IMG/VR virus record: IMGVR_UViG_3300045988_154277
Length of the DNA stretch: 64,000 bases
From: a virus
Direction: 5' to 3' (one strand)
Under the pieces are notes generated by a model. That model ran no database searches and had not been told where the DNA came from. It saw only the letters and a list, made by a program, of their open reading frames with translations. Below, piece by piece: positions 12,514 through 29,830 of this stretch; positions within the stretch are counted from its first letter, which is position 1; every line of letters starts with the position of its first letter. Made by a program: the position numbers and the translations under genes.

Positions 12514-12541
12514 TAAACATATATTCCAGAGAGGAGCATAC
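12514..12541. terminator. Hairpin TTCCAGAGAGG-agcata-CCTCTCTGGAA downstream of paralog A
   Basis: 11-bp perfect stem. A degenerate CGTATAGAT box follows on the minus strand. Confidence 0.45.
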
Positions 12542-12558
12542 CTCTCTGGAATACAACG

Positions 12559-13926
12559 TTATTTGGATGTTTGTCTCTTATACTCAGCTTCTACAGCTTG
12601 GATGATCTTCTTAGCCCAGGCTCGATCTGCATTTGTGATAACATACTTGTTAGCAGCATTTCTGGCTCTAGATTCTTGCACACGATCTGGGTAAGCAACA
12701 CCACTTTTGTTAGAGTCAAATGGAAGATCATGTTGACTATCCCATAGATGTTTACATTCATGCACGACAGTGTGTATGAACCAATCTTCTTTCGAAGTAT
12801 TATAATTGGATACGAATGCATAAGTCCACCTAGCTATCCACGATAGCAAGTATGTTGCATTTATCCAAAGATTATAACCTTTTAAAGTATTATCGGTGTA
12901 ACACCATCCACCAACTGTCGATATCGTTTCATCTACTGGGTTAGCCCATGCGGATGGCGATACATTTGTTACGACAACAACACCTAGATTCAATGATCCA
13001 CCAAAATAAGACTCCAATCTATTCCTTGTGCCTAAATCAAAAGGGAACATCATGTGGATATGGATCTTTGATCCAGAATAGATCAGGTGTAAGTTTTTCA
13101 AATGATCAGCCAATATGTTTAGTTGATCATACACACGATCTATAACTGTAAACAAAAAGCTTACATACTCTTTGACAGACGTGATATCTTGTATGTTACA
13201 ACCAACACCGTGTAGTATGGGAGCTATGGTTTTACCAAAATCAATTAAGTTTGTAACACATACGGATTCAAACTCGTTACGGTTGTTTTCAGTTAGAGAA
13301 GTAAACCGATCAATATCCTGTCTAAACGATGTCAATATGGATGTGCATTTATCTAAGATATCCAATCTTACATGAAGGTATTCTTGTACCAATTCAGCGT
13401 GTGCTTTTACTCGAGCTCTAGTATACACAAACTCACCGTCTTCATCACTTAACAACCGTTTTAATTGAGCAGTAATATCCTCTATATCGTGAAGTACATC
13501 TCGCTCTGTTATAAATCGAGTCCTTATTGGATTGTCGTGTATTTTACCCAATGTCATTTCTATTTTGTTTAAGTTCTGTTTAAGGTATATTTCCCCATTC
13601 GGATCCGATGTAGAAAACATGGCTGTTAACTTAACTTTGATCAATTGATACGTGCGTATTAACCAAGATAACATTTTCTTGAGAATGTCCTTTAACCACG
13701 CAACGAACTGCTGAATAGCGTTCTTAGCCGCATCCATCAGGTTTTCACAGGCAAACATGTGTTCTATTACGGCTAGGTCTTGATTTGAACACGTTAACAA
13801 CGTAACAGCATTCTCATATGCATCTAATCCAGATTGAATCATATTAAACAACAACGCCTTATCAGCTAGTTGTGTTTTATACTCGTTGTATGCTAAACAA
13901 TCGTGGTATATCGTATCTACGTTCAT
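12559..13926 (-). CDS. HExxH paralog family, large member A (putative zinc-metallopeptidase-like)
   Basis: VVHECKHLWDSQHD and a C-terminal DRAWAKKIIQAVEAEYKRQ stretch, both shared with 21707.., 27944.. and 26192... Conserved N-terminal AYENA...WLKD. I moved the start to the Met that has GGAGA upstream. Confidence 0.55.
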   Translation of the reverse strand: MNVDTIYHDCLAYNEYKTQLADKALLFNMIQSGLDAYENAVTLLTCSNQDLAVIEHMFACENLMDAAKNAIQQFVAWLKDILKKMLSWLIRTYQLIKVKLTAMFSTSDPNGEIYLKQNLNKIEMTLGKIHDNPIRTRFITERDVLHDIEDITAQLKRLLSDEDGEFVYTRARVKAHAELVQEYLHVRLDILDKCTSILTSFRQDIDRFTSLTENNRNEFESVCVTNLIDFGKTIAPILHGVGCNIQDITSVKEYVSFLFTVIDRVYDQLNILADHLKNLHLIYSGSKIHIHMMFPFDLGTRNRLESYFGGSLNLGVVVVTNVSPSAWANPVDETISTVGGWCYTDNTLKGYNLWINATYLLSWIARWTYAFVSNYNTSKEDWFIHTVVHECKHLWDSQHDLPFDSNKSGVAYPDRVQESRARNAANKYVITNADRAWAKKIIQAVEAEYKRQTSK

Positions 13927-13947
13927 GGTGTTCTCCAATCTATAATG

Positions 13948-13982
13948 TGCTATGAGAGAGATCACATATCTCTCTCATAGCA
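13948..13982 (-). promoter_or_regulatory. Hairpin (TGCTATGAGAGAGAT-cac-ATATCTCTCTCATAGCA) between small gene A and large gene A
   Basis: About 15-bp perfect stem inside the cassette, in the same position as the poly-G/C hairpins of cassettes B and D. Confidence 0.4.
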
Positions 13983-13983
13983 T

Positions 13984-14298
13984 TTAGAGTAAACGATCAA
14001 CTACGGATCTCTGGTCTGGCCTCAATTGACTGTAGTTAAAACACCAATAGAGATTTGCATCGTATCTATCTACAAGTACAATTAAATCCCTTGACCAATA
14101 AAAATATTCAACAGAGTGATTCGTAATAATAGAGTCAAAACGAACTGGTGTAGCACATTTGGGTTCTTGTATTGCTGAACTCAGTGTATGATACAACTGC
14201 AGTAACCAAGGCTGTGTTTTTCCAGACAACAGCTCTGTTGATGATCGATATCGGTCATTTGGTGGGTCCTCTGGTGGACAATAATACCAGTTAGTCAT
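13984..14298 (-). CDS. Small partner protein A of the cassette (about 100 aa, C-terminal L.xDQ motif)
   Basis: C-terminus QLRPDQRSVVDRLL resembles CLRDDQVERLEEL, LSPDQQAYVDD and LRKDQLTSDQLDYI of small B, C and D. Confidence 0.45.
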   Translation of the reverse strand: MTNWYYCPPEDPPNDRYRSSTELLSGKTQPWLLQLYHTLSSAIQEPKCATPVRFDSIITNHSVEYFYWSRDLIVLVDRYDANLYWCFNYSQLRPDQRSVVDRLL

Positions 14299-14303
14299 CA
14301 CAT

Positions 14304-14663
14304 TTACTTCTTCTGTGAATTCATCATCGAATCAAGCATCTCGCTGAAGTTGTTACAGACTTCTTTCCATACGAACCCAAGGAACGACTCACCACTTCCA
14401 CTGGATTTCGGTTTCCTGGATCTGGCTTTCTTCTTGGCAGCCAACAGATATATCGCTGGGTCTACTTTAGGAAGCTCGATCTCACTGAACTCCACTTCGT
14501 GACGACAGCAAGGACAGATCCAGACTTGCTTATTGTACGGGTCCATCTCGGTCCCACACTCAGGACACTTCGGTCCGAACTCACGATTACACTTACAGCA
14601 CATGTAGTCTTCGTTGAACAACACGAAGTCACGGCATCCACATTCTGGGCAACGAACATCCAT
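14304..14663 (-). CDS. Multi-CxxC zinc-ribbon protein
   Basis: CPECGC...CCKC...CPECG...CPCCRH. RBS AAGGAGA. Its stop abuts the start of small gene A. Confidence 0.5.
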   Translation of the reverse strand: MDVRCPECGCRDFVLFNEDYMCCKCNREFGPKCPECGTEMDPYNKQVWICPCCRHEVEFSEIELPKVDPAIYLLAAKKKARSRKPKSSGSGESFLGFVWKEVCNNFSEMLDSMMNSQKK

Positions 14664-14786
14664 AATCATTCTCCTTCTTTTAGTTGGTTGTTGCATAGTA
14701 TCTGCTTATCACTACTATTTGAAATATACCGTCCTCTCCTAAGCATGGTATGCCATTCGTACAGTATAACAAGATAGGAGACTATC

Positions 14787-15734
14787 ATGGTCGATTTAAA
14801 CGTATTGAAACCATCCAAGCCTCGTGAACAAGAGGAGAGGATCGAGGATCTGTGTACCTTAGTTTGCACATCCTACGATACTGCCAATATCGAGGACATG
14901 GTTGCATTGGAAGAGGAGCTTTCTACTCTATTTCAATATTTGAAATTGGACACACTAACTCCCCTGGCTTTGGAAGATCTTCATAAAGTCGGTATCCTCA
15001 GTGAAGAAGCGGTGGATATAGTGAAGATCCGAAAGGGTATCGTCAGTTCTGCCAAAAGCGTTGGGAACAGTCTTGCCAAGTTCGCTGCTTGGGTTCATAA
15101 CACTTTGCAGAACAAGACCGTCACAGAGAAGTACATCTTGAAACGATTCGCGAAGTTAGAACAGACATTATCTACCGCTGAAACCTCCCGTGGATACGTG
15201 AAAGATGTTCCCACCTATGACGTTGTACAGAAGCGGCTTGTCGGTATCCTACAGGTCTGTGATTTCATCAAAGAGCTATCCTCTCAACAGGATACCACAG
15301 GTGGTTACAACGATGGAATCTTCGAGAAAGTAGCTTTGGTATCCAATGGAGTGTTGAAGTTGACAGCTCCTTATTCAGAGTCTACTTATCGGAATCTGGA
15401 ATGGTCGAAGCCAACCTTGTCCAGCTATGAAGTTCTCAAGTCTCCTTGGAACAACTCCAATAACTTGCAGAAACTGAGAAACTTGGTAATCGAAGCCAAG
15501 TATGAATCTCTGGAAGATCTTGCAACAGCAGCTAAGGTATTAGCGAAACGATGCAGTAAATTCAGGGAAGAGACTGCTTATGCTGCCCCTGATTACAACG
15601 AAGTAGCGAATACTTACAACGCTGCTTACGTGATCAACAAGATGGTCAAGCAGATCAACCAAGCGATCAACAAAGAGATCAACACTCTTGTGATCTCGTA
15701 TATCACCCACCTTATCAACTATACAACCATTTGA
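14787..15734 (+). CDS. Hypothetical protein
   Basis: ORF with RBS GGAGA, divergent from the zinc-ribbon gene. Confidence 0.45.
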   Translation: MVDLNVLKPSKPREQEERIEDLCTLVCTSYDTANIEDMVALEEELSTLFQYLKLDTLTPLALEDLHKVGILSEEAVDIVKIRKGIVSSAKSVGNSLAKFAAWVHNTLQNKTVTEKYILKRFAKLEQTLSTAETSRGYVKDVPTYDVVQKRLVGILQVCDFIKELSSQQDTTGGYNDGIFEKVALVSNGVLKLTAPYSESTYRNLEWSKPTLSSYEVLKSPWNNSNNLQKLRNLVIEAKYESLEDLATAAKVLAKRCSKFREETAYAAPDYNEVANTYNAAYVINKMVKQINQAINKEINTLVISYITHLINYTTI

Positions 15735-15746
15735 GGTATTACAACT

Positions 15747-16775
15747 ATGGCACTCTCAGCTATCCTGTTCTATACGAACAAGGTTTATCCTAAAGATATC
15801 GTTCTCGACAAAAACACGATCCCGGATGATCCCAATGAACGATTGAAAGACAAAGTCTTCATGTCTGTCGTGTTCACCGTGAAGCACTTCTGTGAATACA
15901 AAGACTTCGTCGTTCCTGAGACAACATTCAAAGATGATTTGAAATGCACCAAAGAACAGATGGAGAAGATCCTGAAGTCGTTGTCAGACAAGTTCAATGT
16001 GACGTTCGACAAACATTGGTTCGGTACAGTACAGGATCTTACGATCTACGTAAAGGACCATCAGGCGAAGAAGTCCGAAGAGTCATTGTTGGATGTTGCA
16101 ATAGTTGTCGGAGGTGCTGTTCTCATCGCAAGTGCTGCGTCCGCATTGTGGAATAAGATCTTTAAGAACGATGATTCCAAGTATTACGTTGATCTTGATG
16201 AATGGGATAAGTTTAAGAAAGAGTATGCTAAGATATGCGATATTATTCTTAAACATGCGAAGGATGATCCTTTCTTCTCAAAAGAACAACACAAAACATA
16301 TACAGTTGATGAAGGCATTGCCATTTACCAGATGATCATCCAACGATTTGAAGCGTTCCTGAAACTTCCGCATAAGAAAGCAGATGAATCACGTGAAGAA
16401 TATCAAAGACGCCTGCTTGACACCATGCGTAGTTTGAAATACGACGATCCCGATACATTCTACAAGAAACTCCCGCAGCGTAAACCACATACTTACATCG
16501 AAGCTCAGTACTTCGATATCGCAAAAGTTGATAAGTGCATCAAAATGCTTGGTACCATTGATGGAATGTATTCTCAAATGGAAAAGCATGAAGAGAGTAT
16601 CTGCGCAGACAACGATGCAAATCGTGTGTGGTTCGATCTGCGTCTTGGAGGAGAACAAGACTTTTCTGAATCATTCGATTCTTATACATTCGGAGCAGAC
16701 TTCAGAAGCAATGTTCCTCGTATCCTGAAATACGTAAAAGAACAACTTGAACAAGCGAAGAAACAATCCAAGTGA
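15747..16775 (+). CDS. Hypothetical protein with one predicted TM helix
   Basis: Hydrophobic segment LLDVAIVVGGAVLIASAASALW. Followed by a terminator. Confidence 0.45.
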   Translation: MALSAILFYTNKVYPKDIVLDKNTIPDDPNERLKDKVFMSVVFTVKHFCEYKDFVVPETTFKDDLKCTKEQMEKILKSLSDKFNVTFDKHWFGTVQDLTIYVKDHQAKKSEESLLDVAIVVGGAVLIASAASALWNKIFKNDDSKYYVDLDEWDKFKKEYAKICDIILKHAKDDPFFSKEQHKTYTVDEGIAIYQMIIQRFEAFLKLPHKKADESREEYQRRLLDTMRSLKYDDPDTFYKKLPQRKPHTYIEAQYFDIAKVDKCIKMLGTIDGMYSQMEKHEESICADNDANRVWFDLRLGGEQDFSESFDSYTFGADFRSNVPRILKYVKEQLEQAKKQSK

Positions 16776-16780
16776 ATATA

Positions 16781-16820
16781 CCAGTAAGGATAGTGAGGAT
16801 GACTCACTATCCTTACTGGT
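16781..16820. terminator. Bidirectional terminator (CCAGTAAGGATAGTGAG-gatg-ACTCACTATCCTTACTGG)
   Basis: 18-bp perfect inverted repeat between convergent genes. Confidence 0.6.
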
Positions 16821-16823
16821 GTC

Positions 16824-17591
16824 TTATTGAGGTTGGATGCTGTTCAACCGATCAGCCAGTCCTTTACCGAAGAGGATAACACACTGTTGATCTTCCATCA
16901 ACTGGTCGTATTCCGTCTTGGTAAGGAGACCGCACGATGTGAACTGCATGTAGATCTGCTTGAACAGATCCAATTGCTGAGTGATGCCAGCAACACCATC
17001 GAGATGTGCTCCAGCAGCGAACACGCTCGGAGGAGAGATCTCACAGAACATGTTGTCCGAGATCGTCTTCTCACATGGAAGGGTAAGGAAGAGTGCACCT
17101 CCAGTGCAGAGGATATAAGGACCGTGGATCCTGGTCCTCTTGCACAATGCAACATCTTTTAGTTTCTTCTGAAGGATGTTGTACATCCCAACCGCGAAGA
17201 ACTCATCGATGTAAGAAGGCGCCCAGATCTCCAAGTAATCGTTGGATGTTACCTGATCCAGCAACAAGATGAACTCGTTCATCATCTCATTACCGATCAT
17301 AGGGTGGCACATGTTCACCGTGTTCAGATAGAACGTCCATTTCACAACGGAAGCATCGTCTTCCTCGACTACCAGCCTTTCGAATGGGAGATTGCGACAT
17401 GTCGTTCTTGGTATATTCTGACCTTCTACTGGTTGATCACAGTTTTGATTCGGAACCATAGCTTCTGCACTATAGGATTCCAAACTCGACTGAGGGAAGA
17501 CTTTGGTATCATCCTGGGCATCCACAACCAGAGTAGCACCAGGAAGTGCAGACAACTTATCTTCCGTACGCTTTACGAAATCAAGCTTCAT
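16824..17591 (-). CDS. Hypothetical protein (last gene of the protease operon)
   Basis: I moved the start to the internal Met, which is preceded by GGAGGTG and overlaps the ClpP stop. Confidence 0.45.
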   Translation of the reverse strand: MKLDFVKRTEDKLSALPGATLVVDAQDDTKVFPQSSLESYSAEAMVPNQNCDQPVEGQNIPRTTCRNLPFERLVVEEDDASVVKWTFYLNTVNMCHPMIGNEMMNEFILLLDQVTSNDYLEIWAPSYIDEFFAVGMYNILQKKLKDVALCKRTRIHGPYILCTGGALFLTLPCEKTISDNMFCEISPPSVFAAGAHLDGVAGITQQLDLFKQIYMQFTSCGLLTKTEYDQLMEDQQCVILFGKGLADRLNSIQPQ

Positions 17592-18219
17592 ACCGCACCT
17601 CCATAACTCTCTGTTTTTCTGATGGAGTATCTTCCATAGCAGCCAACCGTTCATTCACGGTGACACCACTCAGATATACATCTTTCCTGTGGTTTACAAC
17701 ATTCTCAATGTCTTCCACAGTGAGGATCCCTCTGGTGATCCGTGTCAGAAGTCCTGTGAAGTAATTGCAAAGACCCGTTGTCTGGTCTTTCACATCCATC
17801 GATTTACCGAAGTATCCGCCTGATGGCATATGGAACATCAGTGTAGCCATGGGAGAGATCCTCCTCACCTTGCCACCGCACCAGATCACAGCAGCGATAG
17901 ATGCACACATCCCGATCGCATCGGTGATGATCTGTCCTTTGGAGTTCTGGATCGCATGGAAGATGTCGATACCAGTTTCCACCCAACCTCCATTCGAGCA
18001 AAGATAGATCGTCATCTCATCTGTCTCACGAAGGTTCATGATCGTGTGAATCAGTTCCAAATAAGGATCCGGCATGATCACTTCTTGATCCAAGAACACG
18101 GTGTACTTGCAAGAACCGTCTTCCATAGTCTTGCCGCAGATCTTACCGCTCTGTCCTGGTTTCAAAGACAGGAAAGTAGCGATCCTGGCGTTGTTCTCTT
18201 GTGGTTGTTCCATACTCAC
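17581..18219 (-). CDS. ClpP-family (S14) serine protease; possible prohead maturation protease
   Basis: IYLCSNGGWVETG...GMCASIAAVIWCGG...MFHMPSGG aligns with ClpP IYLYINSPGGVITAG...GQAASMGAFLL...MIHQPLGG (Ser and His sites). Confidence 0.75.
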   Translation of the reverse strand: MSMEQPQENNARIATFLSLKPGQSGKICGKTMEDGSCKYTVFLDQEVIMPDPYLELIHTIMNLRETDEMTIYLCSNGGWVETGIDIFHAIQNSKGQIITDAIGMCASIAAVIWCGGKVRRISPMATLMFHMPSGGYFGKSMDVKDQTTGLCNYFTGLLTRITRGILTVEDIENVVNHRKDVYLSGVTVNERLAAMEDTPSEKQRVMEVRYEA

Positions 18220-19007
18220 CTCCCGAACAGCGTGTGGAATACCTGATGGGAATGACCCTGGTCGTCAACAACGGCACCGTTCTTCGCATCCAGGATCCCA
18301 ACTACCGTTCTGGCGATAGAGACCTTATCCACTTCCAGGATATCCAGAAGCTGCTGATCATGGATCGACTCACAACCGAGTGCGTTGGCGATCTCAGGAA
18401 GATGATCTTTCGGATCGAACTCGTAGGAGAGACCCTCCAGACCTTTCACGTAGACTTTGGAAGCCTCCGCATATCCAGGGCAGTCCACGGCATCGATCGT
18501 CACAAGAGCGTTCACTCGTTGTTTGATCACATTGCCTTCCTGACCGATCTTGGCAACCAGAGACCGCAACGAGAACGCTGCGTTCTTCAGAGGATCTTCC
18601 AGACGATCCTTCAGATACGGACCATAAGGTCCAGAGCATTGGATATCACCATAGACCACAACATGTCCCTGTTCAGTAGGTTGTCCAGTCCACACACGAT
18701 GGATCGTGTGAGATTCGTTCTTGGAGTCGATGAGCATCACCCGGGGAAGATCTTTGTCTTCCCAAATCATCGGATGTCCCCACTCTCCAGTGAGCTGTCC
18801 TGCTTTCAGGCGTCTCACGAAAGGAGAGTACGGGTTGGTCAGGGCATCGACCATGCTGGTAACCTCATAGTCTTTGAGGTTACGGGATACTTTACCCAAC
18901 ACCATCAAGGGAATGTCATGGTAAACCCCGTTCTTATCAGGTTTCAGGCTCTTCTGGTTCCCTTCCAGGAGAAGAGCTGAACTGATATCAAAAGCTATCG
19001 TGTTCAT
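18216..19007 (-). CDS. Hypothetical protein upstream of ClpP; possibly prohead/scaffold-associated
   Basis: Overlaps the ClpP start by 4 nt. Has a GEWGHP segment and an SLRSL segment. Confidence 0.35.
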   Translation of the reverse strand: MNTIAFDISSALLLEGNQKSLKPDKNGVYHDIPLMVLGKVSRNLKDYEVTSMVDALTNPYSPFVRRLKAGQLTGEWGHPMIWEDKDLPRVMLIDSKNESHTIHRVWTGQPTEQGHVVVYGDIQCSGPYGPYLKDRLEDPLKNAAFSLRSLVAKIGQEGNVIKQRVNALVTIDAVDCPGYAEASKVYVKGLEGLSYEFDPKDHLPEIANALGCESIHDQQLLDILEVDKVSIARTVVGILDAKNGAVVDDQGHSHQVFHTLFGR

Positions 19008-19026
19008 ATGTATTCCTTATTAGAAG

Positions 19027-19713
19027 TTAATTGCGAAGCAGATCTTCGATATCGCTCGAAGTGTCGTTGTTCGGGTTGACGATCATGCCGTTGATCGCAT
19101 CTTGCAGATAGCCACCGATCAGTTTGGCTGTGGTACTCATCGTTGCATGAGCGGAGTCATTCAACTTCAAGAACCTCGGTGGATTGATCATATCCGTTTT
19201 CCTGTAGAACTTACGGACATCCTCTCGATCTCTGGCAAGGTGAGAGAAGATCATCTCGAAGGTTGCATGATTCACATTCATCTTGGACTTGGTGATCTCT
19301 TTCACGATATCGAAGATGAACGCACAGGTGTTGTAATCGATGAACTTCGGGATCTTCCCGTTCTGGATATACTCATTGAAAAGTACATAAGCAAGGTAAG
19401 AGTTCCTCACCACTTCACGGTGGTTCAAGAACACATCTCCTTGCTTGAACAGACATCTCAGATAGTCGATCCCTCCGATAGTAACGAACTGCACATCAGA
19501 AGGAGACATACTGATCATCGCAGGAAGGAAGATACTGTGATCTCCCACATCTTTAATGGTGAATTCGAAGATAGCCAGAGCATCTGTGGTATCTCCAATC
19601 TTCAACAACCCATATCGTTCATAGGACTTGGGAACGTAAGCGAGCATCTCGTGTCCTGTGAACAGGACACGATCATCCTTGTATTCCAAATAGTCATTAA
19701 AGTTAAACATCAT
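19027..19713 (-). CDS. Hypothetical protein
   Basis: ORF inside the co-directional operon. Confidence 0.4.
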   Translation of the reverse strand: MMFNFNDYLEYKDDRVLFTGHEMLAYVPKSYERYGLLKIGDTTDALAIFEFTIKDVGDHSIFLPAMISMSPSDVQFVTIGGIDYLRCLFKQGDVFLNHREVVRNSYLAYVLFNEYIQNGKIPKFIDYNTCAFIFDIVKEITKSKMNVNHATFEMIFSHLARDREDVRKFYRKTDMINPPRFLKLNDSAHATMSTTAKLIGGYLQDAINGMIVNPNNDTSSDIEDLLRN

Positions 19714-19721
19714 CTAACTCC

Positions 19722-21578: not shown

Positions 21579-21662
21579 GGGCAACACCTCTCGTTAAAGG
21601 TTGACTTTTAAGCATAGCATGACCCGATCAAGTGTGCTAGAACACAAAAGAATAAGCTTAAA

Positions 21663-21700
21663 AAGCGATCTAGATGTGAGATAACACTCACATCTAGATC
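21663..21700 (-). terminator. Conserved cassette terminator (ATCTAGATGTGAG-ataac-ACTCACATCTAGAT plus T-run)
   Basis: 13-bp perfect stem and then CGCTTTTTAAG on the minus strand. Same ATCTAGATGT stem motif as at 26135 and 27905. Confidence 0.55.
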
Positions 21701-21706
21701 AGATCA

Positions 21707-23068
21707 TTACTTGTTCTTCTGTCTCTTATACTCAGCTTCTACAGCTTGGATGATCTTCTTAGCCCAGGCTCGATCAGAGTCTGTGATTTCAAACGTACGT
21801 GCTGCGTCATTGGCAACATGTTCGTGTTCTTGTTCATCGTAATCTTTGGTCATATCAATCGTAGTACCCATCTGCGAATCGTACAAATGACGACACTCGT
21901 GTACAACAACGAATAGAAATTGGTCTACTTTAGAAGAAGTACCAACAGTGACTGCATTAAAGATACGATCAAACCACGACAAGATCACCTTCACATTGAC
22001 ATAGAAGTCAACCGTATTGGTACCTGTACCAACCATACACCATCCCATCATAGCGGTAGGTTTGTCATCAAGTGGATTAGGCCACAAAGCTGGATTCGTA
22101 TTCGTCACAACCATATTTCGAATCCTGAATGCCATCCCATAATGTTCACCAAGTCTCTTCACGAAATCTTGGTCCATAGGAAAGGTCATGTTGATACTGT
22201 ATCCGTCTTTCGTATAAGCTTTATGAAGATCTTGCAGATACTTCGATGCGAATTCACACACTGTATCCAATGCACTTATGGTAATGGTCAGGAACTTAAC
22301 GAATCCTTTTACGATATTGGAAGGCTGAGCCTCTTCATCCACATCTGCACGAACAAACAGATTGTAATGATTGGATACAACTTTATCAATCTTCTCAACC
22401 AACGTCTCCATGTCGGTTGTGTCAGTAACTTGTTTCTTGAATTCGTCAAGTGCTCTAATGTACTGACCGATCGATCCTGATATTTGATTCAAATCATTAC
22501 CAAGTGCTGTTGCATGTTTGTAGATCTCTCTTCTACGATAAGTGATACCACCATCTTTCTCCACTAAGCCAGCTTTAAACATATCATCCAGTTGTCGGTT
22601 AAAGTCTTCCAAATTGGAGAAATCTGTGTTGTCACTCAATTCGATTCGAAGATCAGAAAGCTTATTTATGACAGTCATCCAAGCTTGATACACTTTGTCG
22701 ATATCATACTTCCATTTCATAGGCTGGTCCAAACCAGGAGAGAAGTGTGTCTTGATGGAAGCTTTGATATCTCGAAGGACTCGAAATAGCTTACCGACAA
22801 AAGCAATGATCCTGTCTTTCAGCCATTTGAAGAATTGACTAACTCCTTCTTTCGCTTGTTGGAAGATCCCTTCTTCACCTATTAGCATCTGGAAGTGTTC
22901 GGTATAACCGTATTTGCGTTCATATTGGTTCACGATGGTGGCATTTTCATAAGCCACGATACCAGAGATGATCTCTTTGTAGAGATCATTGAGTTCGTGA
23001 AACCGTTGGATATGTTTTATAGCTTGTTCTTGTGCAAGCATCTCATCGAAAAAAGAAATGTTGTACAT
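21707..23068 (-). CDS. HExxH paralog family, large member B
   Basis: VVHECRHLYDSQ and C-terminal DRAWAKKIIQAVEAEYKRQKNK. RBS GAGGA. Confidence 0.55.
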   Translation of the reverse strand: MYNISFFDEMLAQEQAIKHIQRFHELNDLYKEIISGIVAYENATIVNQYERKYGYTEHFQMLIGEEGIFQQAKEGVSQFFKWLKDRIIAFVGKLFRVLRDIKASIKTHFSPGLDQPMKWKYDIDKVYQAWMTVINKLSDLRIELSDNTDFSNLEDFNRQLDDMFKAGLVEKDGGITYRRREIYKHATALGNDLNQISGSIGQYIRALDEFKKQVTDTTDMETLVEKIDKVVSNHYNLFVRADVDEEAQPSNIVKGFVKFLTITISALDTVCEFASKYLQDLHKAYTKDGYSINMTFPMDQDFVKRLGEHYGMAFRIRNMVVTNTNPALWPNPLDDKPTAMMGWCMVGTGTNTVDFYVNVKVILSWFDRIFNAVTVGTSSKVDQFLFVVVHECRHLYDSQMGTTIDMTKDYDEQEHEHVANDAARTFEITDSDRAWAKKIIQAVEAEYKRQKNK

Positions 23069-23095
23069 AATTGTCCTCTGTGTTATAGTTATGCG

Positions 23096-23134
23096 AGAGG
23101 GGAGTTGTTACCCCCCCCCGCAGTGTGTCACACT
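23096..23134 (-). promoter_or_regulatory. Hairpin GGGGAG...CCCCCCCCC (C9 tract) plus palindrome AGTGTG-t-CACACT, between small B and large B
   Basis: Homopolymer C9 at 23111-23119. Confidence 0.4.
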
Positions 23135-23403
23135 AGTTCCTCTAACCGTTCGACCTGATCATCCCGTAAGCACTCTCTTGGAAATGGAGTTCCGAGATTA
23201 GACTCCATAACCAATTTAGCACCACGGATGGGAAGAGTGGAGTGTGTAACCCAATAGATGTTGTCTCTACTGATCACGCACATGTGATCATCTTCCCACA
23301 TACGATCAAGTTTGTTTTGAAGAGCTATTTTGGAAAGCAGACTGTTGTTACGAATCTGCTCGTATTGTTGACGCTTCAGTGTATTCACATCGCTGATGAT
23401 CAT
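23128..23403 (-). CDS. Small partner protein B
   Basis: Start moved to Met after AAGGAGG. C-terminal motif LGTPFPRECLRDDQVERLEELV is homologous to small D. Confidence 0.45.
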   Translation of the reverse strand: MIISDVNTLKRQQYEQIRNNSLLSKIALQNKLDRMWEDDHMCVISRDNIYWVTHSTLPIRGAKLVMESNLGTPFPRECLRDDQVERLEELV

Positions 23404-23456
23404 ACCAACCTCCTTGTTTATTTTGATGCAGAAGGAGCATATGATACTCAAAGGTT

Positions 23457-23489
23457 TAGATGCTGGAGAGGTCGTAACTCTCCAGCATC
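23457..23489 (-). terminator. Hairpin GATGCTGGAGAG-gtcgtaac-CTCTCCAGCATC after the 56-aa gene
   Basis: 12-bp perfect stem. Confidence 0.4.
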
Positions 23490-23498
23490 TAGGTCACA

Positions 23499-23669
23499 CT
23501 ACACTACCAATTGGTAGGTGTCGTAACCCGTTCGGATAACGCGCTTCACAGCGACATACCCATCGGGTGTTTTCACCCTGAGTCCGTCAACCGGAAGCTT
23601 ACCCAGAGCGATCAACCGAAGTTGACGTTCTCTCTGGACGTCCTTAGACTGTTTGTTAATAACAACCAT
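23499..23669 (-). CDS. Small 56-aa protein (not in the ORF track); paralog of the 39496..39678 gene
   Basis: AGGAGGA lies 6 nt upstream. The sequence MVVINKQSKDV...GKLPVDGLRVKTPDGYVAVKRVI resembles MAVINSRPKDY...GRLPASSLRVRTHDGRYVQVAKVV. Confidence 0.4.
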   Translation of the reverse strand: MVVINKQSKDVQRERQLRLIALGKLPVDGLRVKTPDGYVAVKRVIRTGYDTYQLVV

Positions 23670-23755
23670 GACACGATCCTCCTGTTTATGTGTTGCTTAC
23701 AATACGACCCCTCCTAGTGTGAAACTAGAGGCCAATCAAAATCTTTGAGTGAACC

Positions 23756-23794
23756 CAGGTAGGGTAGGATACGTTATGTATCCTACCCTACCTG
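23756..23794 (-). terminator. Hairpin CAGGTAGGGTAGGATAC-gtta-GTATCCTACCCTACCTG
   Basis: 17-bp perfect stem immediately after the 76-aa gene stop. Confidence 0.55.
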
Positions 23795-23798
23795 TCTA

Positions 23799-24029
23799 TC
23801 AGTTCTTACACCACTTGGGATCGATAACTTCTTCGATCTCATGCAGTGTTGCTGCAATTGCCCGATCACACCGTCTCCAAGTGTAACCGTACTTCTTCAC
23901 CTGCATACGCTTCAGTCTCCAGTGTGCAACACGTCTGTTTAGTTTCTGGATCATGATGCGTTTCATGATCCCAGCGATGATGTTGTCAGTACTGTTGGCG
24001 ATACGTTCGCTCTGTAACTTAGTAACCAT
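23799..24029 (-). CDS. Small basic hypothetical protein (76 aa)
   Basis: ORF downstream of a TATATAT box. First gene of the transcription unit feeding cassette B. Confidence 0.4.
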   Translation of the reverse strand: MVTKLQSERIANSTDNIIAGIMKRIMIQKLNRRVAHWRLKRMQVKKYGYTWRRCDRAIAATLHEIEEVIDPKWCKN

Positions 24030-24074
24030 GATGAACCCCCTTATGATTTGTTATCTTCCTGGTGCTTTCATAAG

Positions 24075-24100
24075 AGTTATATATATTCGAAATATTTTGA
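24075..24100 (-). promoter_or_regulatory. Variant of the recurring TATATAT box (TTATATATATTCGAAATATTTTGAACTACAC)
   Basis: Shares the TATATAT core and the GAACTACAC segment with the copies at 47459 and 61830. Confidence 0.35.
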
Positions 24101-24108
24101 ACTACACT

Positions 24109-24138
24109 ACTCTAGAGGGATACATGTATCCCTCTAGA
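24109..24138 (-). terminator. Hairpin CTCTAGAGGGATAC-at-GTATCCCTCTAGAG
   Basis: 14-bp palindrome directly after the 24161 gene stop. Confidence 0.55.
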
Positions 24139-24160
24139 GTAGGTATGGTGTTATCAACTG

Positions 24161-25273
24161 TTATTGACCGAATATAGGATAAAACCGTCTGTAGTTGGTG
24201 TGAATAGCTTCCAGATAGTATCCTCTTTTTACAGGGATAAAGATGGTTTGATCTGTTACACCACCATCTTTCCCAGCACGTCTCCCATCGGATGTTGTAT
24301 GGGTTGCAAGAAGTTGTGATTTAGATGCGTCTTTATAGATATGAACAGTAGTTACGCGTGTGGGTTCAGCATTGGAGTTAACCCACCGTACATAGAACCA
24401 TCCGTCAGACGGAGTGGTGTATGTGTAAGTCGCAACGTATGCGTTCTCTCCTAAATTGATGCTACGCTCGTATTCGGGCATACCTAACGCACCGCCCTCT
24501 ATAATGCTGTTGATGGTATTAAGCGCATCCTGGATCTTCTGGTCCATCTGTTTGGTATAATCGGTGATCAACTTCAATACATCCTGAACATTGACATATC
24601 CAGCCATGGGAGCTTGATTGAACACCTGGATGTAAAGAGCCATCGTCACACAAGGTGCGACAACCTCATTTGAGAATCCGAATGCATCTGTGCTGTATCT
24701 GCCGTATGCAGCATCTTTTATAAGGTCGCCTCCTTTAGCATTATTTGGCAGTATACTTGTGTCCAACATCGGTTCATCGGCACTGCTGGTGTTGGCTAGT
24801 GATTGACAATCGTTTCCATATCCAGATAAGTGTGGGTATTGGTTTGCTGGATAGTACACATCGTATCGCATTGCCAATGTTAAATCAGGTAACCCGCTCA
24901 AGTAGGTTTTGTTGTGTACATTGACAGCTTGGTTGGATTCGTATCCTCTGATATATCTCGTAACCTTAGGAAGACGGATGTCACTTCCTTCGATCACAAA
25001 CATACCGGATTGTCCTGTGGAGGCCAACTCCGCTTCATATTGTGCATTTGTCCCAGTACGGATGTAGTTTTTCGAACCATACTCCACTGCTTTCTGGTAG
25101 AACTCTGGGTAGAGTGTTTGACATCCTCGGATCCACTCTCCGGTATTCAGCGGGTATGCACCTGGAGGTGTTTCTCTGGACATGGAGTAGAACACTTCGA
25201 ATATATTCTTGGCACCAGAGATCTCTTTCTTCAGATCATCGGTCATCGGAATATTACGTCTCTTAAACGACAT
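24161..25273 (-). CDS. Hypothetical protein (start moved to MSFKRRN)
   Basis: AAAGGA RBS before the internal Met. The longer ORF would run into a perfect palindrome. Confidence 0.45.
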   Translation of the reverse strand: MSFKRRNIPMTDDLKKEISGAKNIFEVFYSMSRETPPGAYPLNTGEWIRGCQTLYPEFYQKAVEYGSKNYIRTGTNAQYEAELASTGQSGMFVIEGSDIRLPKVTRYIRGYESNQAVNVHNKTYLSGLPDLTLAMRYDVYYPANQYPHLSGYGNDCQSLANTSSADEPMLDTSILPNNAKGGDLIKDAAYGRYSTDAFGFSNEVVAPCVTMALYIQVFNQAPMAGYVNVQDVLKLITDYTKQMDQKIQDALNTINSIIEGGALGMPEYERSINLGENAYVATYTYTTPSDGWFYVRWVNSNAEPTRVTTVHIYKDASKSQLLATHTTSDGRRAGKDGGVTDQTIFIPVKRGYYLEAIHTNYRRFYPIFGQ

Positions 25274-25300
25274 AGTGATATCCTTTCGGTTATGTAAAGG

Positions 25301-25335
25301 TTTGTTTACGATGGTATGATACCATCGTAAACAAA
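25301..25335. promoter_or_regulatory. 35-bp perfect palindrome (TTTGTTTACGATGGTAT-g-ATACCATCGTAAACAAA) between divergent genes
   Basis: 16+16 bp perfect inverted repeat centred between the starts at 25273 and 25365. Confidence 0.45.
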
Positions 25336-25364
25336 GCATCTACTATAGAGGAAGGAGTCTTCAT

Positions 25365-26135
25365 ATGCCATTCCATAGACGTAAGTTGGAGATCAATGAT
25401 GAGTTCCGAGCATCGATCCAGAAGTTGATCGATGATGCAACTGCCGCATTAAATACCAAAGTGGACGAAGCCCTGAAACAGATCGATGAGAAGATCAGTG
25501 GTGGTGTAGTTGGATTCCCGAACTACGCTGCTGCATCCCAGATCTCCGATCCAACAACACTGAGAACAGCAACCAGCAACGGTTACCTGATGATCCAGAA
25601 CGGATGGGGTAACAACTACGGGATGGGTCCTTGTCGATTGACCATCGGATCGAATACCTTCATCATCGGTTATAACCATAACGAAGGAAAGCACTATTCT
25701 CAAGGAAGTACAGCAGGTATGTTCCCCGTGAAACAAGGAGAGTCTTGGAAGCTGGATACACGTGGCTCTTCTTACCGTGTGGTATACTGGGTACCTTGCT
25801 ATACCACAGGAACAGGAGGCTCCGGTGGGAGCGATCCATCTACTGGATCTGGTGGTCTTAGTTTCCCAGACTACTCTCTTGGTTCAGACATCATGAACGA
25901 TTACATCTCCGGTTGGACAGCACGAGTGGATGGTTGGGTATACGTTCGTATCAACCGCAGTGGGTACATCGTCTGTATCAACGGTGCTGAGGTAACTCGC
26001 GGTTCCGAGTCTAACTCTGAAATGTGTTGTTTCGTGCCAATCAAAGCAGGTCAGACTGTAACGATCCGGAAGTTCTCGGACAACAGTATCGTAGCTACCA
26101 CCAAAGAACCGATGATATTCTATCCATTATTGTAA
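25365..26135 (+). CDS. Hypothetical structural protein with a Gly-rich linker (fibre-like)
   Basis: RBS GGAGG. Contains TGTGGSGGSDPSTGSGG. Confidence 0.4.
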   Translation: MPFHRRKLEINDEFRASIQKLIDDATAALNTKVDEALKQIDEKISGGVVGFPNYAAASQISDPTTLRTATSNGYLMIQNGWGNNYGMGPCRLTIGSNTFIIGYNHNEGKHYSQGSTAGMFPVKQGESWKLDTRGSSYRVVYWVPCYTTGTGGSGGSDPSTGSGGLSFPDYSLGSDIMNDYISGWTARVDGWVYVRINRSGYIVCINGAEVTRGSESNSEMCCFVPIKAGQTVTIRKFSDNSIVATTKEPMIFYPLL

Positions 26136-26175
26136 ATAGGATCTAGATGTAGGAGAATGATCTCCTACATCTAGT
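26135..26175 (-). terminator. Conserved cassette terminator (ATCTAGATGTAGGAGA-atg-ATCTCCTACATCTAG)
   Basis: Same stem motif as at 21663 and 27905. Confidence 0.5.
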
Positions 26176-26191
26176 TGATATAACGCTTATT

Positions 26192-27544
26192 TCACTGTGC
26201 CTGACGACGTACTTCAGTATCCAACCGTTGTAAGACCATTCTAGCGAATGCAATATCAGCAGGAGTTGACTTGTAGTTATCAGCTGCATATCGAGCACGC
26301 GACTCATAGGTACGATCAGCATATTCGTGCGAACCCGTCTCGACTTTAAATGTACCACCTATCCTGTTTTGAATATCAAACAAATGTCGACATTCGTGAA
26401 CGATAGTTTTAATGAGCGATTCTTCTTTAGAACCACGTAATCTACTCCATCGAGATATACTGGACATCAGAAAGTTGTAATTGCACCAAATATTCGGTAT
26501 TGGTACATCTTCGAACATCCACCCTGTGATAGAACTCTTTACTCCAGTTATTGGATCTGGCCAAGTTCTCGAGTCCCTGTTAGTGACTATCAACTGATTA
26601 ACTTTGAACACACCACCATAGTACTCTCCAAGACGGCGACATAAATCGTGACTTATAGGAAATGAAAGATGTATATCGATCTCATTGCACATATACGCAT
26701 GTCGTAAGTTAACTAAGTATCCTTCCAACGTACTAACGTTGATACTTGTATACTTTATCTTAAGTAAGAGTAGTTTCAACAAAGTGTTGCACACGATAAT
26801 CTTTTCATCGAGTGTAGTGACTTTAATGGTATCGTTAGCGCTCATATAGTTGTGTTGAAGTGTCTCACACATAGAACGAATCAAACGATCAACACGATGT
26901 GTTATACTAGGATCGTTTGCATTGAGTTGGTTTATAGTATCTGTCAATGACAGTATCTCTGGAAGATGCTGATTCAACATAGTGATCGACTGACATATCA
27001 CCTCAGCATGTGACTTCAACCTAGTTGCGGTAACTGCATTTCCACGAACAATCGTATTTAGAAGATGTCCAAGATCTGATGATTGTGATATTAACAATCG
27101 TTCTGTTAGTTCAACCTGCTCTGGTCTATTGACCCAGAAATCAATAGGATCTTGTAGAATAACAAACAACTTTTGTTCTATTGTGGATATGTCATAGCCC
27201 AATTTGATCAAACGATCGAGATCGTCAACATGAAGGATAGTCATAATCTTTGATTTAATCTTAGTGATTAAATTCAACACAAATGCAACTATCTTTCTAA
27301 TTGTATCTTTCAACCAAGTTATGAAATTTTCAATAACCTGCCTGGCATCATCAATTAGACTCTCGTCTCCGATTAGATCATGAAAATCCCTGGTGACACC
27401 ATGCTGTTCATAAAACCTTACAACAACTGTAGCATTGTGATATGCGTTGAAAGCGATATCTTGTTTCTGAATTATGTCGTCCAAACATTGTAGTTCGATA
27501 TAGTCGTGAACAGCATCGTAGCAATCAAATACATCAATATTCAT
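26192..27544 (-). CDS. HExxH paralog family, large member C (the most divergent of the four)
   Basis: IVHECRHLFDIQ and C-terminal ADIAFARMVLQRLDTEVRRQ. ATGA overlap with small C. Confidence 0.55.
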   Translation of the reverse strand: MNIDVFDCYDAVHDYIELQCLDDIIQKQDIAFNAYHNATVVVRFYEQHGVTRDFHDLIGDESLIDDARQVIENFITWLKDTIRKIVAFVLNLITKIKSKIMTILHVDDLDRLIKLGYDISTIEQKLFVILQDPIDFWVNRPEQVELTERLLISQSSDLGHLLNTIVRGNAVTATRLKSHAEVICQSITMLNQHLPEILSLTDTINQLNANDPSITHRVDRLIRSMCETLQHNYMSANDTIKVTTLDEKIIVCNTLLKLLLLKIKYTSINVSTLEGYLVNLRHAYMCNEIDIHLSFPISHDLCRRLGEYYGGVFKVNQLIVTNRDSRTWPDPITGVKSSITGWMFEDVPIPNIWCNYNFLMSSISRWSRLRGSKEESLIKTIVHECRHLFDIQNRIGGTFKVETGSHEYADRTYESRARYAADNYKSTPADIAFARMVLQRLDTEVRRQAQ

Positions 27545-27870
27545 TTTAAATCCTCTAGCGATTCCAGTAACTCAGCATACATATCTCGTATAGACTTTCC
27601 GTTCCTATCATCAACATATGCTTGTTGGTCAGGGCTGAGTTTCCATTTTACAAAACAATGACAACCGCTAAGGTACTCATTAAATGCCGAACATCCAACC
27701 ATATCGATCCAAACAAAACCTTGGTGCGTGTACATATAACCATAATAACACACTGATTTGAACCTCTCTTGAGCTTCTTGAGGTGTTTCATATGCCGCGA
27801 TATCCATCAAACGTTTCTTAGCATCATCATGGTGCTTTTGCATCTCTCTTGTAACTTGTTCCGTACACAT
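27541..27870 (-). CDS. Small partner protein C
   Basis: Start moved to Met after AAAGGAGAAA. C-terminal WKLSPDQQAYVDD motif. Confidence 0.45.
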   Translation of the reverse strand: MCTEQVTREMQKHHDDAKKRLMDIAAYETPQEAQERFKSVCYYGYMYTHQGFVWIDMVGCSAFNEYLSGCHCFVKWKLSPDQQAYVDDRNGKSIRDMYAELLESLEDLK

Positions 27871-27904
27871 GTGAGTTTCTCCTTTCACTATCATATCATA
27901 AAAT

Positions 27905-27942
27905 CTAGATGTAGGCGTGTGCTCTCCTACATCTAGATAGAT
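27905..27942 (-). terminator. Conserved cassette terminator (TCTAGATGTAGG-cgtgtgctc-TCCTACATCTAGAT plus TTTTAT)
   Basis: Stem plus T-run on the minus strand, between large D and small C. Confidence 0.55.
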
Positions 27943-27943
27943 C

Positions 27944-29419
27944 TTATTTCTGCTTCTGTCTCTTGATTTCTGCTTCTACCTGGTCAAGGATCTTCTTCGC
28001 CCAAGCACGGTCACGATCAGTGATCTCGAACTTGGTAGCAGCTTCCTGAGCTCTTCGTTCATGTTGGTATTTGCGATATTTGAAGAACGAGTCTCCTTCT
28101 CGCATCACATCGAACTCTTTCCCATACTGCATATCCCAGAGATGTTTGCACTCATGAACGACAGTACCGATGAACGCATCGTATTTGTTGATGCGATTGT
28201 CATTCAAGAACGCACCACTGAATCTTGCGATCCAAGATGTCATGAACCGTGCACTCACCCAAAGTTCCGTTGGGAATGACACACCAGATCCATTGCCTGG
28301 ATAACACCATCCCATCAACCCAGGAGTTTCAGTAGCGATGTTCCAGGTGGTCGGACTCATATTCGTCACGATAAGCTTCGTCACTTTGATCGGAGCTCCA
28401 TAGAAATCAGAAAGTCTCTTGATCATCGCCTGATCGAACGGGAACTCCATATGGATCGACACTTCACCTTTGTTGTACGCAGAATGCAGCTCTTTCAAAA
28501 TAGATACCCCTTTACGAATGCATCTATTGAAGAACTGACTGTAAGAAGTTGCGAATGCAATACAAGCACTTGCCTGGATCCGGAGTACTGCGATAAAACT
28601 GCTTTCATCTGATACATTAACGTGTTCATATATTTTGGTTTTGTTTGTATCAAGCAACAGGCTCCGTGCTCCAGGGAATCGTCTTATGAAATCCGCGATC
28701 TTATCTCTGGTACGTGTAAGATCATCGTGTTCATTCAACGACTTTTGGAGGGTATCGATCATCTTACCCATCGTGTTCATCATCGTAACATAACTGTTGT
28801 TGATTATGTACTCAAACTTCTGAGCATATTCACAGAACTTCATACGAGGATAAGAGGTTTCCTTCTTACATTCTTCAATCCCACCACACAGTGTATTGTA
28901 CGCTTGATTTAAAAAGTCGTTTAAAACAGAAACCATCTCACCGATGGTGGTAGCTTGTCTGACGTCGTTACCGATCTGGTTTTCTTTGGTTGCCATCTCG
29001 AACACAGAACGGAAGAACCCAGCTACTCTAATGATCTCATAAGGACTCTTAGTTGCGATCATCTTGTTGATATGAATAAGCGACCACACCATCGATGTTA
29101 AGATATCTACGATACTACTTATGATGTTGAAGATGAGGCTAGCCAGTTGGATCAACTTCTTCTTCAACCAACTAATGATGCTACCAAGTACTTCTTTGGC
29201 GGAGTCGAAAAGGCCTTCCTCTCCGATCAGCAGTTTGAAATGTTCTGTGTATCCGTACTTGTCCTGATACTGTTCCACCACGGTAGCGTTATGGATCGCC
29301 ATCAGTCCGTTGGTTACTTCCATACCCAAACGTTCCGTCTCCATCAGGTTACGATCCAGTTCGTTCAGTTTCAACTGATACTGGTAATCCTCTAAGAATG
29401 TAATATCTTCCACGGTCAT
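27944..29419 (-). CDS. HExxH paralog family, large member D
   Basis: VVHECKHLWDMQYG and C-terminal DRAWAKKILDQVEAEIKRQKQK. Confidence 0.55.
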   Translation of the reverse strand: MTVEDITFLEDYQYQLKLNELDRNLMETERLGMEVTNGLMAIHNATVVEQYQDKYGYTEHFKLLIGEEGLFDSAKEVLGSIISWLKKKLIQLASLIFNIISSIVDILTSMVWSLIHINKMIATKSPYEIIRVAGFFRSVFEMATKENQIGNDVRQATTIGEMVSVLNDFLNQAYNTLCGGIEECKKETSYPRMKFCEYAQKFEYIINNSYVTMMNTMGKMIDTLQKSLNEHDDLTRTRDKIADFIRRFPGARSLLLDTNKTKIYEHVNVSDESSFIAVLRIQASACIAFATSYSQFFNRCIRKGVSILKELHSAYNKGEVSIHMEFPFDQAMIKRLSDFYGAPIKVTKLIVTNMSPTTWNIATETPGLMGWCYPGNGSGVSFPTELWVSARFMTSWIARFSGAFLNDNRINKYDAFIGTVVHECKHLWDMQYGKEFDVMREGDSFFKYRKYQHERRAQEAATKFEITDRDRAWAKKILDQVEAEIKRQKQK

Positions 29420-29457
29420 TCTCCTTGTTATAAGACCTTATGTGACAAAAAAGAAAA

Positions 29458-29481
29458 GGGGAGAGGTGTTACCCCCCCCCC
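29458..29481 (-). promoter_or_regulatory. Hairpin GGGGAGAGG...CCCCCCCCCC (C10 tract) followed on the minus strand by TTTTCTTTTTT; an attenuator- or terminator-like element between small D and large D
   Basis: Homopolymer C10 at 29472-29481. The minus strand reads GCGGGGGGGGGGTAACACCTCTCCCCTTTTCTTTTTT. Confidence 0.45.
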
Positions 29482-29492
29482 GCATATTATCT

Positions 29493-29765
29493 TCAGCTGA
29501 GGTGCTGAAGGATGTAGTCCAACTGATCGGAAGTCAGTTGGTCTTTACGGAGATACTCCGTGTTAGAGATCGGTTCTGGATTGCCCAGAGGACAGATGTA
29601 TTGGACAATCCGGATGTATTCTCCTTCATCATGGAAGAACGATCCAGATGTCGCGTATGTTGCGATCAGATGATCTGCTCTTGCTCGAGCATCCTCGATC
29701 TTCAATCGATCTGCCGCTCTCCGATACGCGATGCGTTTCATCAGCTCAATTACTGCATTACTCAT
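29493..29765 (-). CDS. Small partner protein D
   Basis: Start moved to ATG after AAGGAG. The C-terminus is homologous to small B. Confidence 0.45.
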   Translation of the reverse strand: MSNAVIELMKRIAYRRAADRLKIEDARARADHLIATYATSGSFFHDEGEYIRIVQYICPLGNPEPISNTEYLRKDQLTSDQLDYILQHLS

Positions 29766-29800
29766 GTCGTTATCTCCTTGGTTCGTTTCTAGTTTCACTT

Positions 29801-29830
29801 AGTTATATATAAGCCAAAATACTTTCAAAT
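29801..29830 (-). promoter_or_regulatory. TATATAT box (GGCTTATATATAACTAAGTGAAAC on the minus strand) upstream of cassette D/C
   Basis: Member of the recurring hairpin-plus-TATATAT unit. Confidence 0.35.

Follow-up and report, generated by a model that had tools for sequence, protein, structure and literature searches.

A 64,000-nucleotide (64-kb) stretch of phage DNA, IMG/VR virus record IMGVR_UViG_3300045988_154277 and hereafter the window, carries on its minus strand four copies of a two-gene cassette, each composed of a small gene (sA to sD) and a large gene (A to D). The source phage is an uncultured jumbo phage of the phiKZ-like, nucleus-forming type. We propose, with a probability of roughly 45%, that the four large proteins are lineage-specific phiKZ-type internal head or ejection proteins equipped with a C-terminal gluzincin-like metallopeptidase domain. 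An earlier sequence-only reading of this DNA described the cassettes; it overlooked that the genes surround an S80 prohead protease gene, and that the N-terminal block of the large proteins holds the motif of that protease and a weak match to phiKZ_IP, a family of internal head proteins.

Four paralogs with a C-terminal zincin domain

All eight cassette open reading frames (ORFs) claimed by the sequence-only reading are present on the minus strand at the coordinates it gave, each with a plausible ATG start and ribosome-binding site. The start of C overlaps the stop codon of sC. The large genes are:

12559..13926, minus strand: large paralog A, 455 amino acids (aa); ACE at residues 59-61; HECKH at 389-393 (DNA 12748-12762); Glu418
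21707..23068, minus strand: large paralog B, 453 aa, structure modelled; GEE at 64-66 (DNA 22871-22879); HECRH at 390-394 (DNA 21887-21901); Glu416 (DNA 21821-21823)
26192..27544, minus strand: large paralog C, 450 aa; GDE at 59-61; HECRH at 383-387 (DNA 26384-26398); Glu414
27944..29419, minus strand: large paralog D, 491 aa; GEE at 66-68; hydrophobic helix at 89-115; HECKH at 422-426 (DNA 28142-28156); Glu454

A–D are true paralogs. The suspected homology of the large proteins extends over their full length (pairwise BLASTP E 1e-42 to 1e-68), with pairwise identities of 26–31% for the whole protein and 35–45% for the C-terminal domain, and a family hidden Markov model (HMM) finds exactly four copies, A–D, in the window. 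The pattern described earlier, a variable middle between conserved termini, is seen in the paralogs and again in 61 orthologs of D: residues ~41–100 and ~300 to the end are conserved, and residues ~101–300 vary. HEC[KR]HL.D.Q, attributed to the large proteins, occurs in 4/4. The proposed N-terminal consensus is a good fit to B and D, and the proposed tail DRAWAKKIIQAVEAEYKRQ to B, D and A, but C is much more diverged from both. Profile searches recovered 92 family representatives (50% identity), none of them from a cultured phage; among the types, D is spread most widely (66 clusters at 90% identity). A Pfam scan of A–D gave zero matches above threshold. No PHROG family was matched by the nine query proteins, and PHROG scans of distant members and of neighbours at other loci returned function-unknown families only.

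Across an alignment of 51 divergent members, in which mean column identity is ~19%, the only invariant positions are Met1, H-E-x-x-H and a Glu downstream of it. This Glu lies 22–28 residues past the second His in A–D, and we took as a third ligand a Glu on the next helix, roughly 18–30 or more residues past that His. Judged from sequence, HExxH with such a downstream Glu is the gluzincin signature. A domain-only model of B (pLDDT 88.8) consists of a small sheet followed by helices, with HExxH in helix 95–114 and the third-ligand Glu in a predicted helix at 129–140; the modelled domain matches zincin folds and has their mixed beta-sheet, with the active-site helix and then the Glu helix after it. 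In the model, then, the fold class of the C-terminal domain is clear (zincin), with no close solved relative. PDB sequence searches yielded only marginal zincin matches for the C-terminal profile (E 0.3–0.6) and only coiled-coil noise for the full-length profile. Sub-threshold Pfam matches fall on the HExxH helix (DUF6782 in 15/51 members, DUF3920 in 12/51), and C has a weak match to MPTase-PolyVal (E 0.17). The zincin-like motif noticed earlier has thus held up, as the sole invariant active-site set in the 51 members and in the agreement of the model with zincin folds. Membership of the SprT, WLM, M48, ImmA-IrrE or DUF45 families, which had been raised with it, found no significant profile match to the family models. 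Catalysis by this site, and the targets of such catalysis, are inferred.

The ORF at 5167-5880, previously taken for a truncated fifth copy, was rejected as a family member. It lies on the plus strand, its full-length hhalign probability is 4%, and it aligns to the family only at the 21-residue active-site helix (hhalign 58%). It encodes a separate 237-aa HExxH protein (TIVHEITHRWQ) that is 76% conserved in a sister phage and has a weak DUF6782 match, and it may be the counterpart of the 'conserved uncharacterised zincin of phiKZ-like phages' of Iyer et al. 2021. A narrower-alignment scan of IMG/VR returned only two loci, each with fragmented or frameshifted copies. Family members at L007 7971-9291 and L006 7992-8432 (IMG/VR jumbo-phage contigs of 197 kb and 361 kb) are frameshift-split or fragmentary and may be pseudogenes or assembly errors; L007 also encodes, at 10994-12082, a relative with the N-terminal part only.

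A prohead protease-type motif and its genomic setting

After the catalytic residues, the best-conserved site in the family is a Glu near residue 61–68, in the context L-[IV]-[G/S/A]-x-E-[G/S]-[LI]. At the aligned site, 47/51 members have Glu, and the position two residues before it is Gly, Ser or Ala in 46/51; the [G/S/A]-x-E motif is present in all four of A, B, C and D, and an amphipathic helix (F..WLK) comes after it. By its residues this is a conserved motif of the type cleaved by phiKZ-type prohead proteases. SPN3US gp245 makes its cut after A-x-E, and S-x-E is consistent with the phiKZ protease motif, gp93 being cut at SLE-13 (PMC5694885). Aligned with one another, bona fide internal head proteins of phiKZ have S-x-E as their only invariant N-terminal feature.

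Matches to PF12699 (phiKZ_IP) were found in 8/51 members, the best at 20 bits / E 9.7e-5 where the curated threshold is 27 bits. They span ~45 N-terminal residues, always cover the motif segment and keep the same register (P0074, residues 58-102 on profile positions 82-126; P0088, 48-88 on 89-129; P0077, 48-90 on 89-131). The top hhalign alignments against two PF12699 alignments (probability 2.6% and 0.4%) set the L-I-G-x-E segment beside the phiKZ cleavage region. Foldseek comparison of a full-length model (pLDDT 71) with viral structures gave mostly phiKZ-like virion or internal head proteins, with neighbours from pTD1, AR9, 201phi2-1, PhiPA3, Noxifer and RAY (E 2e-4 to 0.1); phmmer against phiKZ gp89-97 gave no match. 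Homology to phiKZ internal head proteins is suggested, not proven, by these comparisons and may be limited to a targeting/cleavage module of ~45 residues.

The cassettes are placed on either side of the genes for the S80 prohead protease, a ClpP-like protein and PHROG 'virion structural' proteins, and lie on the same strand as this head module:

11400-12458: PhuZ tubulin, adjoining large gene A
17581-18219, minus strand: ClpP-like serine protease, overlapping the S80 gene on its downstream side
18216-19007, minus strand: S80 (phiKZ gp175-type) prohead protease, between cassettes A and B

The S80 protease is the putative processing enzyme for the [G/S/A]-x-E site. With the ClpP-like gene adjoining it, the head module therefore holds two proteases. 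The earlier statements that C and D are tandem and that A sits beside a tubulin-like gene both hold. Among its other genes, the window has one for a tail sheath of phiKZ type and several for PHROG 'virion structural' proteins. The best cultured match of its PhuZ is only ~30% identical, megablast of the locus against cultured phages gave zero nucleotide matches, and tblastn of B, two distant members and ORF 5167-5880 against 50,697 records found no cultured-phage homolog. All nine query proteins have counterparts of 100% identity on a 278-kb metagenome scaffold (ENA ERZ28568400, BRIT16-1 scaffold_10).

Cassette exchange, loss and rate of evolution

Sister phages have flanks that are 95–100% identical to those of the window (PhuZ, for example, 99.7%; S80 protease, 100%). 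In one of them (L004), slot A holds a large gene of 35% amino-acid identity and a partner of a different type, and synonymous divergence (dS) at the slot is saturated (2.6) compared with 0.15–0.25 in the flanks. Identity this low and dS this high between near-identical flanks therefore indicate replacement by recombination. Slots B and C are empty in other sister genomes; copy-number variation among related phages, which the sequence-only reading had proposed looking for, thus exists among the sisters. The ratio of nonsynonymous to synonymous change (dN/dS) for D, window versus L002, is 0.20, rising to 0.31 in the middle region, whereas neighbours with similar dS have 0.01–0.08. Whole-cassette swapping, the varying copy number and these rates support the idea of a lineage-specific, diversifying effector family. 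Together, the swaps, losses and fast evolution mark these as accessory genes driven by conflict rather than core assembly enzymes.

Other changes were seen at the same slots. The empty B slot of L004 is filled by a Cys-rich 130/143-aa ORF (1667-2098), different from the Cys-rich gene that lies upstream of sA in the window. Beside slot C, 24161-26135 is rearranged relative to L002 11518-12648, L002 being without C and sC, and the 392-aa (minus-strand) and 256-aa (plus-strand) genes of the window both match a single 376-aa reverse-strand gene in L002.

Small partner genes

Each large gene is preceded by a small one:

13984..14298, minus strand: small partner sA, 104 aa, end ...CFNYSQLRPDQRSVVDRLL
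23128..23403, minus strand: small partner sB, 91 aa, ...FPRECLRDDQVERLEELV
27541..27870, minus strand: small partner sC, 109 aa, ...CFVKWKLSPDQQAYVDD...
29493..29765, minus strand: small partner sD, 90 aa, ...EYLRKDQLTSDQLDYILQHLS

The small partners have in common their size (86–121 aa), their position and the C-terminal motif F-x4-L-x-x-[D/S/K]-Q-x3-[L/V], whose F-x4-L-x-x-[D/S/K]-Q part was found in 10/10 modules, partners of distant relatives included. Their description as aromatic-rich suits sA (15% F/W/Y) and sC (13%) but not sD (9%) or sB (5.5%). As one family they stand on motif, size and position, but not on demonstrable homology: BLASTP among them gave no significant similarity (sole alignment sA-sC, E 0.13), and hhalign between partner sub-family profiles, drawn from 43 database clusters, reached <=11%, which is not significant. 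Our claim for them is accordingly limited to a common motif and a conserved position. In leave-one-out HMM trials the omitted partner ranked first among 420 decoy ORFs in seven of nine cases, and the partner module appears real but very divergent.

In distant relatives the module lies directly upstream of the large gene as a single copy (L008, and the swapped slot A of L004), a double copy (L014) or a triple tandem fusion (L007). At least six partner types and at least six large-protein types circulate in one phage clade, and sB persists at full length and 88% identity in a sister phage without B. A search for fusions between partner and large protein found none, and a PDB sequence search with the partner profile gave no match. 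Directly upstream of sA, with almost no gap, 14304-14696 (minus strand) encodes a 130-aa Cys-rich protein with weak zinc-ribbon matches.

Hairpins and a promoter-like element

Inspection of the non-coding DNA of the cassettes identified the following:

12520..12555, minus strand: hairpin 3' of A, different stem sequence (TTCCAGAGAGG...)
21666..21701, minus strand: terminator-like hairpin 3' of B, a variant of the ATCTAGATGT stem with compensatory changes on both arms
23096..23122, minus strand: G9 hairpin between sB and B, no T-run, 88% identical to the sD-D element
26141..26176, minus strand: terminator-like hairpin 3' of C, common ATCTAGATGTAGG stem
27903..27938, minus strand: terminator-like hairpin 3' of D, ATCTAGATGTAGG stem, exact on both arms
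29457..29483, minus strand: G10 hairpin followed by a T-run, between sD and D, resembling an intrinsic terminator
29801..29840, minus strand: copy of an AT-rich element of ~35 nucleotides (nt), core TATATATAACT, 36 nt upstream of sD

The stem-loop said to follow three of the large genes is exact at C and D only; that of B is a variant (ATCTAGATGTGAG), altered on both arms with pairing kept, and the hairpin of A is unrelated. Over their final 102 nt, A and B share 81% identity. Non-coding elements are thus common to different cassettes, and therefore whole cassettes were duplicated or exchanged.

The AT-rich element (AGTGTAGTTCAtcGTTTTTCACGTATATATTACTTAA, core TATATAT[AT]ACT) occurs six times in the window, always on the minus strand (24075-24085, 29801-29811, 39826-39836, 47478-47488, 52571-52581 and 61849-61859), where 0.8 occurrences are expected. 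Besides the copy ahead of sD, another heads a run of small genes that ends with sB. The element resembles jumbo-phage early (virion RNA polymerase) promoters (PMC7598289) and is likely the early promoter consensus of this phage, and the small genes may be expressed earlier than the large ones. A sigma-70 promoter scan gave 24 matches, below the 40 expected by chance, as would be expected of a phage that relies on RNA polymerases of its own.

Other genes of the window

The plus-strand gene at 15747-16775, which comes after a 315-aa gene of similar size, encodes a 342-aa protein that evolves unusually fast (79% identity and dN/dS 0.17 against sister phages); its neighbours are 94–99% identical between the same phages. 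A 276-aa protein encoded at 8420-9250 (minus strand) is 99.6% conserved between sister phages, and its ortholog, L004 14726-15526, has a weak precomputed match to patatin (phospholipase). Two ORFs of >1,100 aa, 1726-5148 (minus strand) and 1732-5097 (plus strand), overlap almost fully on opposite strands. The plus-strand ORF matches PHROG 31410, and the minus-strand ORF is therefore probably spurious.

Interpretation

As internal head or ejection proteins, the large proteins would each be made with an N-terminal targeting segment of ~60–68 aa and incorporated into the prohead, and the S80 prohead protease of the same locus would cut after [G/S/A]-x-E. On the next infection, ejection together with the DNA would bring each into the cell, where the zincin domain would cleave host proteins, probably defence or envelope-associated. 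The fast-evolving helical middle region would set target or partner specificity, and the small F-x4-L-x-x-D-Q protein would be a cognate binding partner, most likely a peptidase inhibitor or chaperone in the producing cell. This proposal has precedents. phiKZ gp93, gp95 and gp97 are injected with DNA, gp162 remaining in the head; the ejected N4 virion RNA polymerase has an HExxH domain (PMC13434306); and for jumbo-phage SprT-like and ArdC-like metallopeptidases, whose copy number varies, Iyer et al. 2021 (PMC7824862) argue that their probable targets are different host proteins.

Several points weigh against this proposal. Packaging of A–D is something we infer for a clade that is uncultured. 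Every PF12699 match lies below 27 bits, A–D themselves have none, and they reach no Pfam or PHROG threshold; the hhalign probabilities against the PF12699 alignments are not significant, and it is for this reason that homology to PF12699 is only suggested. Foldseek TM-scores are low (0.13–0.36), long helices can match without common descent, and conservation of a three-residue motif may have causes other than cleavage. The distant members P0105 and P0118 have no recognisable partner upstream, and sB-type partners form 19 clusters compared with 2 for B-type large proteins; the pairing is therefore not obligate. Given the putative early promoter upstream and the hairpins between sB and B and between sD and D, a pair may not be one late operon.

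The zincin domain, copy-number variation and fast evolution would fit equally well if A–D were non-virion metallopeptidases that act in the infected cell in anti-defence or host takeover, with the partner as regulator, adaptor or specificity factor and the N-terminal block serving localisation or oligomerisation, not capsid targeting. The putative early promoters ahead of sD and of the run ending with sB favor such a role, as does the view of variable-copy jumbo-phage metallopeptidases in Iyer et al. 2021 (PMC7824862). We nonetheless regard it as somewhat unlikely, for the genes are embedded in the head/prohead-protease module on the same strand, [G/S/A]-x-E is their most conserved non-catalytic feature, the sub-threshold PF12699 and Foldseek matches point to virion proteins, and terminator-like hairpins part the promoter-proximal small genes from the large genes. 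That zincins adjoin the prohead protease could also be explained by housekeeping, with A–D processing head or inner-body proteins during assembly alongside S80, a role that Iyer et al. 2021 suggested for a conserved zincin of phiKZ-like phages. The paralogous morphogenetic proteases entertained by the sequence-only reading are, however, very improbable. The genes are dispensable and exchanged between near-identical phages, slots B and C being empty in sisters that are 95–100% identical and the slot A allele being 35% identical; there are four copies with hypervariable middles and dN/dS 3–30x that of structural neighbours; and the tblastn search of 50,697 records found no homolog in any cultured phiKZ-like phage. 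More remote still is the notion that A–D serve structurally as internal head proteins, their HExxH-Glu site being vestigial or binding metal without catalysis. Canonical PF12699 proteins are indeed abundant inner-body or ejection proteins without known enzymatic activity, but the catalytic Glu, both His and the third-ligand Glu are invariant in 51 sequences at ~19% identity, and such invariance is typical of active-site selection.

Packaging of the zincins is also assumed if the cassettes are modules of conflict between phages, in which the large proteins are injected weapons and the small ones early-expressed cognate inhibitors that also protect the infected cell from the zincins of related superinfecting phages, much as in toxin-immunity systems with orphan immunity genes. 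Retention of sB by the sister phage that lost B, the excess of sB-type partners over B-type large genes, the diversity of partner and large types within one clade, and the placing of a putative early promoter before partner genes and of terminator-like hairpins before large genes would all follow. Such conflict is nevertheless improbable in our estimate: binding or inhibition of the large protein by the partner is an assumption, fused genes were not found, the partner-first order is the reverse of that in typical toxin-immunity pairs, and the promoter assignment is a sequence motif only. Doubtful in equal measure is its most specific form, an injected protease with an early antidote, in which the Asp or Gln of the partner motif might block the zinc and shut the effector off. 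If true, it would account for orphan partners and for the circulation of six or more matched types within one clade, and would constitute a virus-versus-virus, capsid-carried counterpart of polymorphic toxin-immunity systems.

Comparison with known systems

The ingredients of the proposed ejection proteins (zincins, multi-copy internal head proteins and capsid-targeting propeptides) are already known singly. In a full-text literature search, no description emerged of proteins that combine a zincin with an N-terminal module resembling that of phiKZ_IP and that also have a conserved small partner and undergo cassette exchange, and the family of 92 representatives (50% identity), having no curated Pfam or PHROG match, is a gap in annotation.

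Bacterial polymorphic toxins and other effector-immunity or effector-chaperone pairs, such as the VgrG2b metallopeptidase effector, resemble A–D in setting a diversifying effector beside a small cognate gene and in having orphan partners. Polymorphic toxins keep the N-terminal delivery region constant, vary the C-terminal toxin domain and have their immunity gene directly downstream. This architecture, considered earlier, is not that of A–D: conservation is highest in their catalytic C-terminus, their middle is variable, the partner gene comes first and there is no secretion-system context. A compact zincin domain is also found in phage and conjugative-element proteins (MPTase-PolyVal PF18818, ArdC, SprT-like; PMC7824862), mobile-element proteins that are delivered to or act in the recipient cell, as A–D would, and whose copy number likewise differs between close relatives. 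A–D have no significant sequence match to them and differ in N-terminal and middle architecture; the Glu taken as their third ligand sits on the helix that follows, in the gluzincin-like manner, whereas SprT and WLM use a downstream His. With cassettes swapped between near-identical gut phages, the family members are likely determinants of host range or counter-defence, and their specificity should be sought in the variable middle region and the partner gene.

The internal proteins of T4 (IPI-III, Alt) share the logic proposed for A–D: a conserved N-terminal targeting peptide removed by the prohead protease, a variable payload and ejection with the DNA (PMC5694885). The sequences are unrelated, capsid targeting in T4 takes a sequence of only ~10 residues, and the T4 payloads are not zincins. 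The phiKZ_IP family (PF12699; phiKZ gp92-97 and gp162/163; SPN3US gp53/gp54, 'paralog family A') likewise belongs to jumbo phiKZ-like phages. Its members are of similar size (about 370–550 aa) and form multiple, partly tandem paralogs, 2 to 7 per phage, which in phiKZ_IP are protease-processed; as in A–D, conservation in their N-terminal part peaks at a protease-type [S/A/G]-x-E motif with a helix after it, and sub-threshold profile matches in the same register and Foldseek neighbours hint at a link between the two groups. A–D differ from canonical phiKZ_IP members, which lack an HExxH zincin domain and for which a small partner gene upstream has not been described. Many internal head proteins are injected by phiKZ-like phages, and what the injected paralogs do is named as an open question in a 2024 preprint about the early infection vesicle. 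The family described here may join the targeting/cleavage module of such proteins to a recognisable enzyme, and the Glu of its HExxH motif would then offer a concrete, mutable activity with which to probe the role of an ejected head protein.

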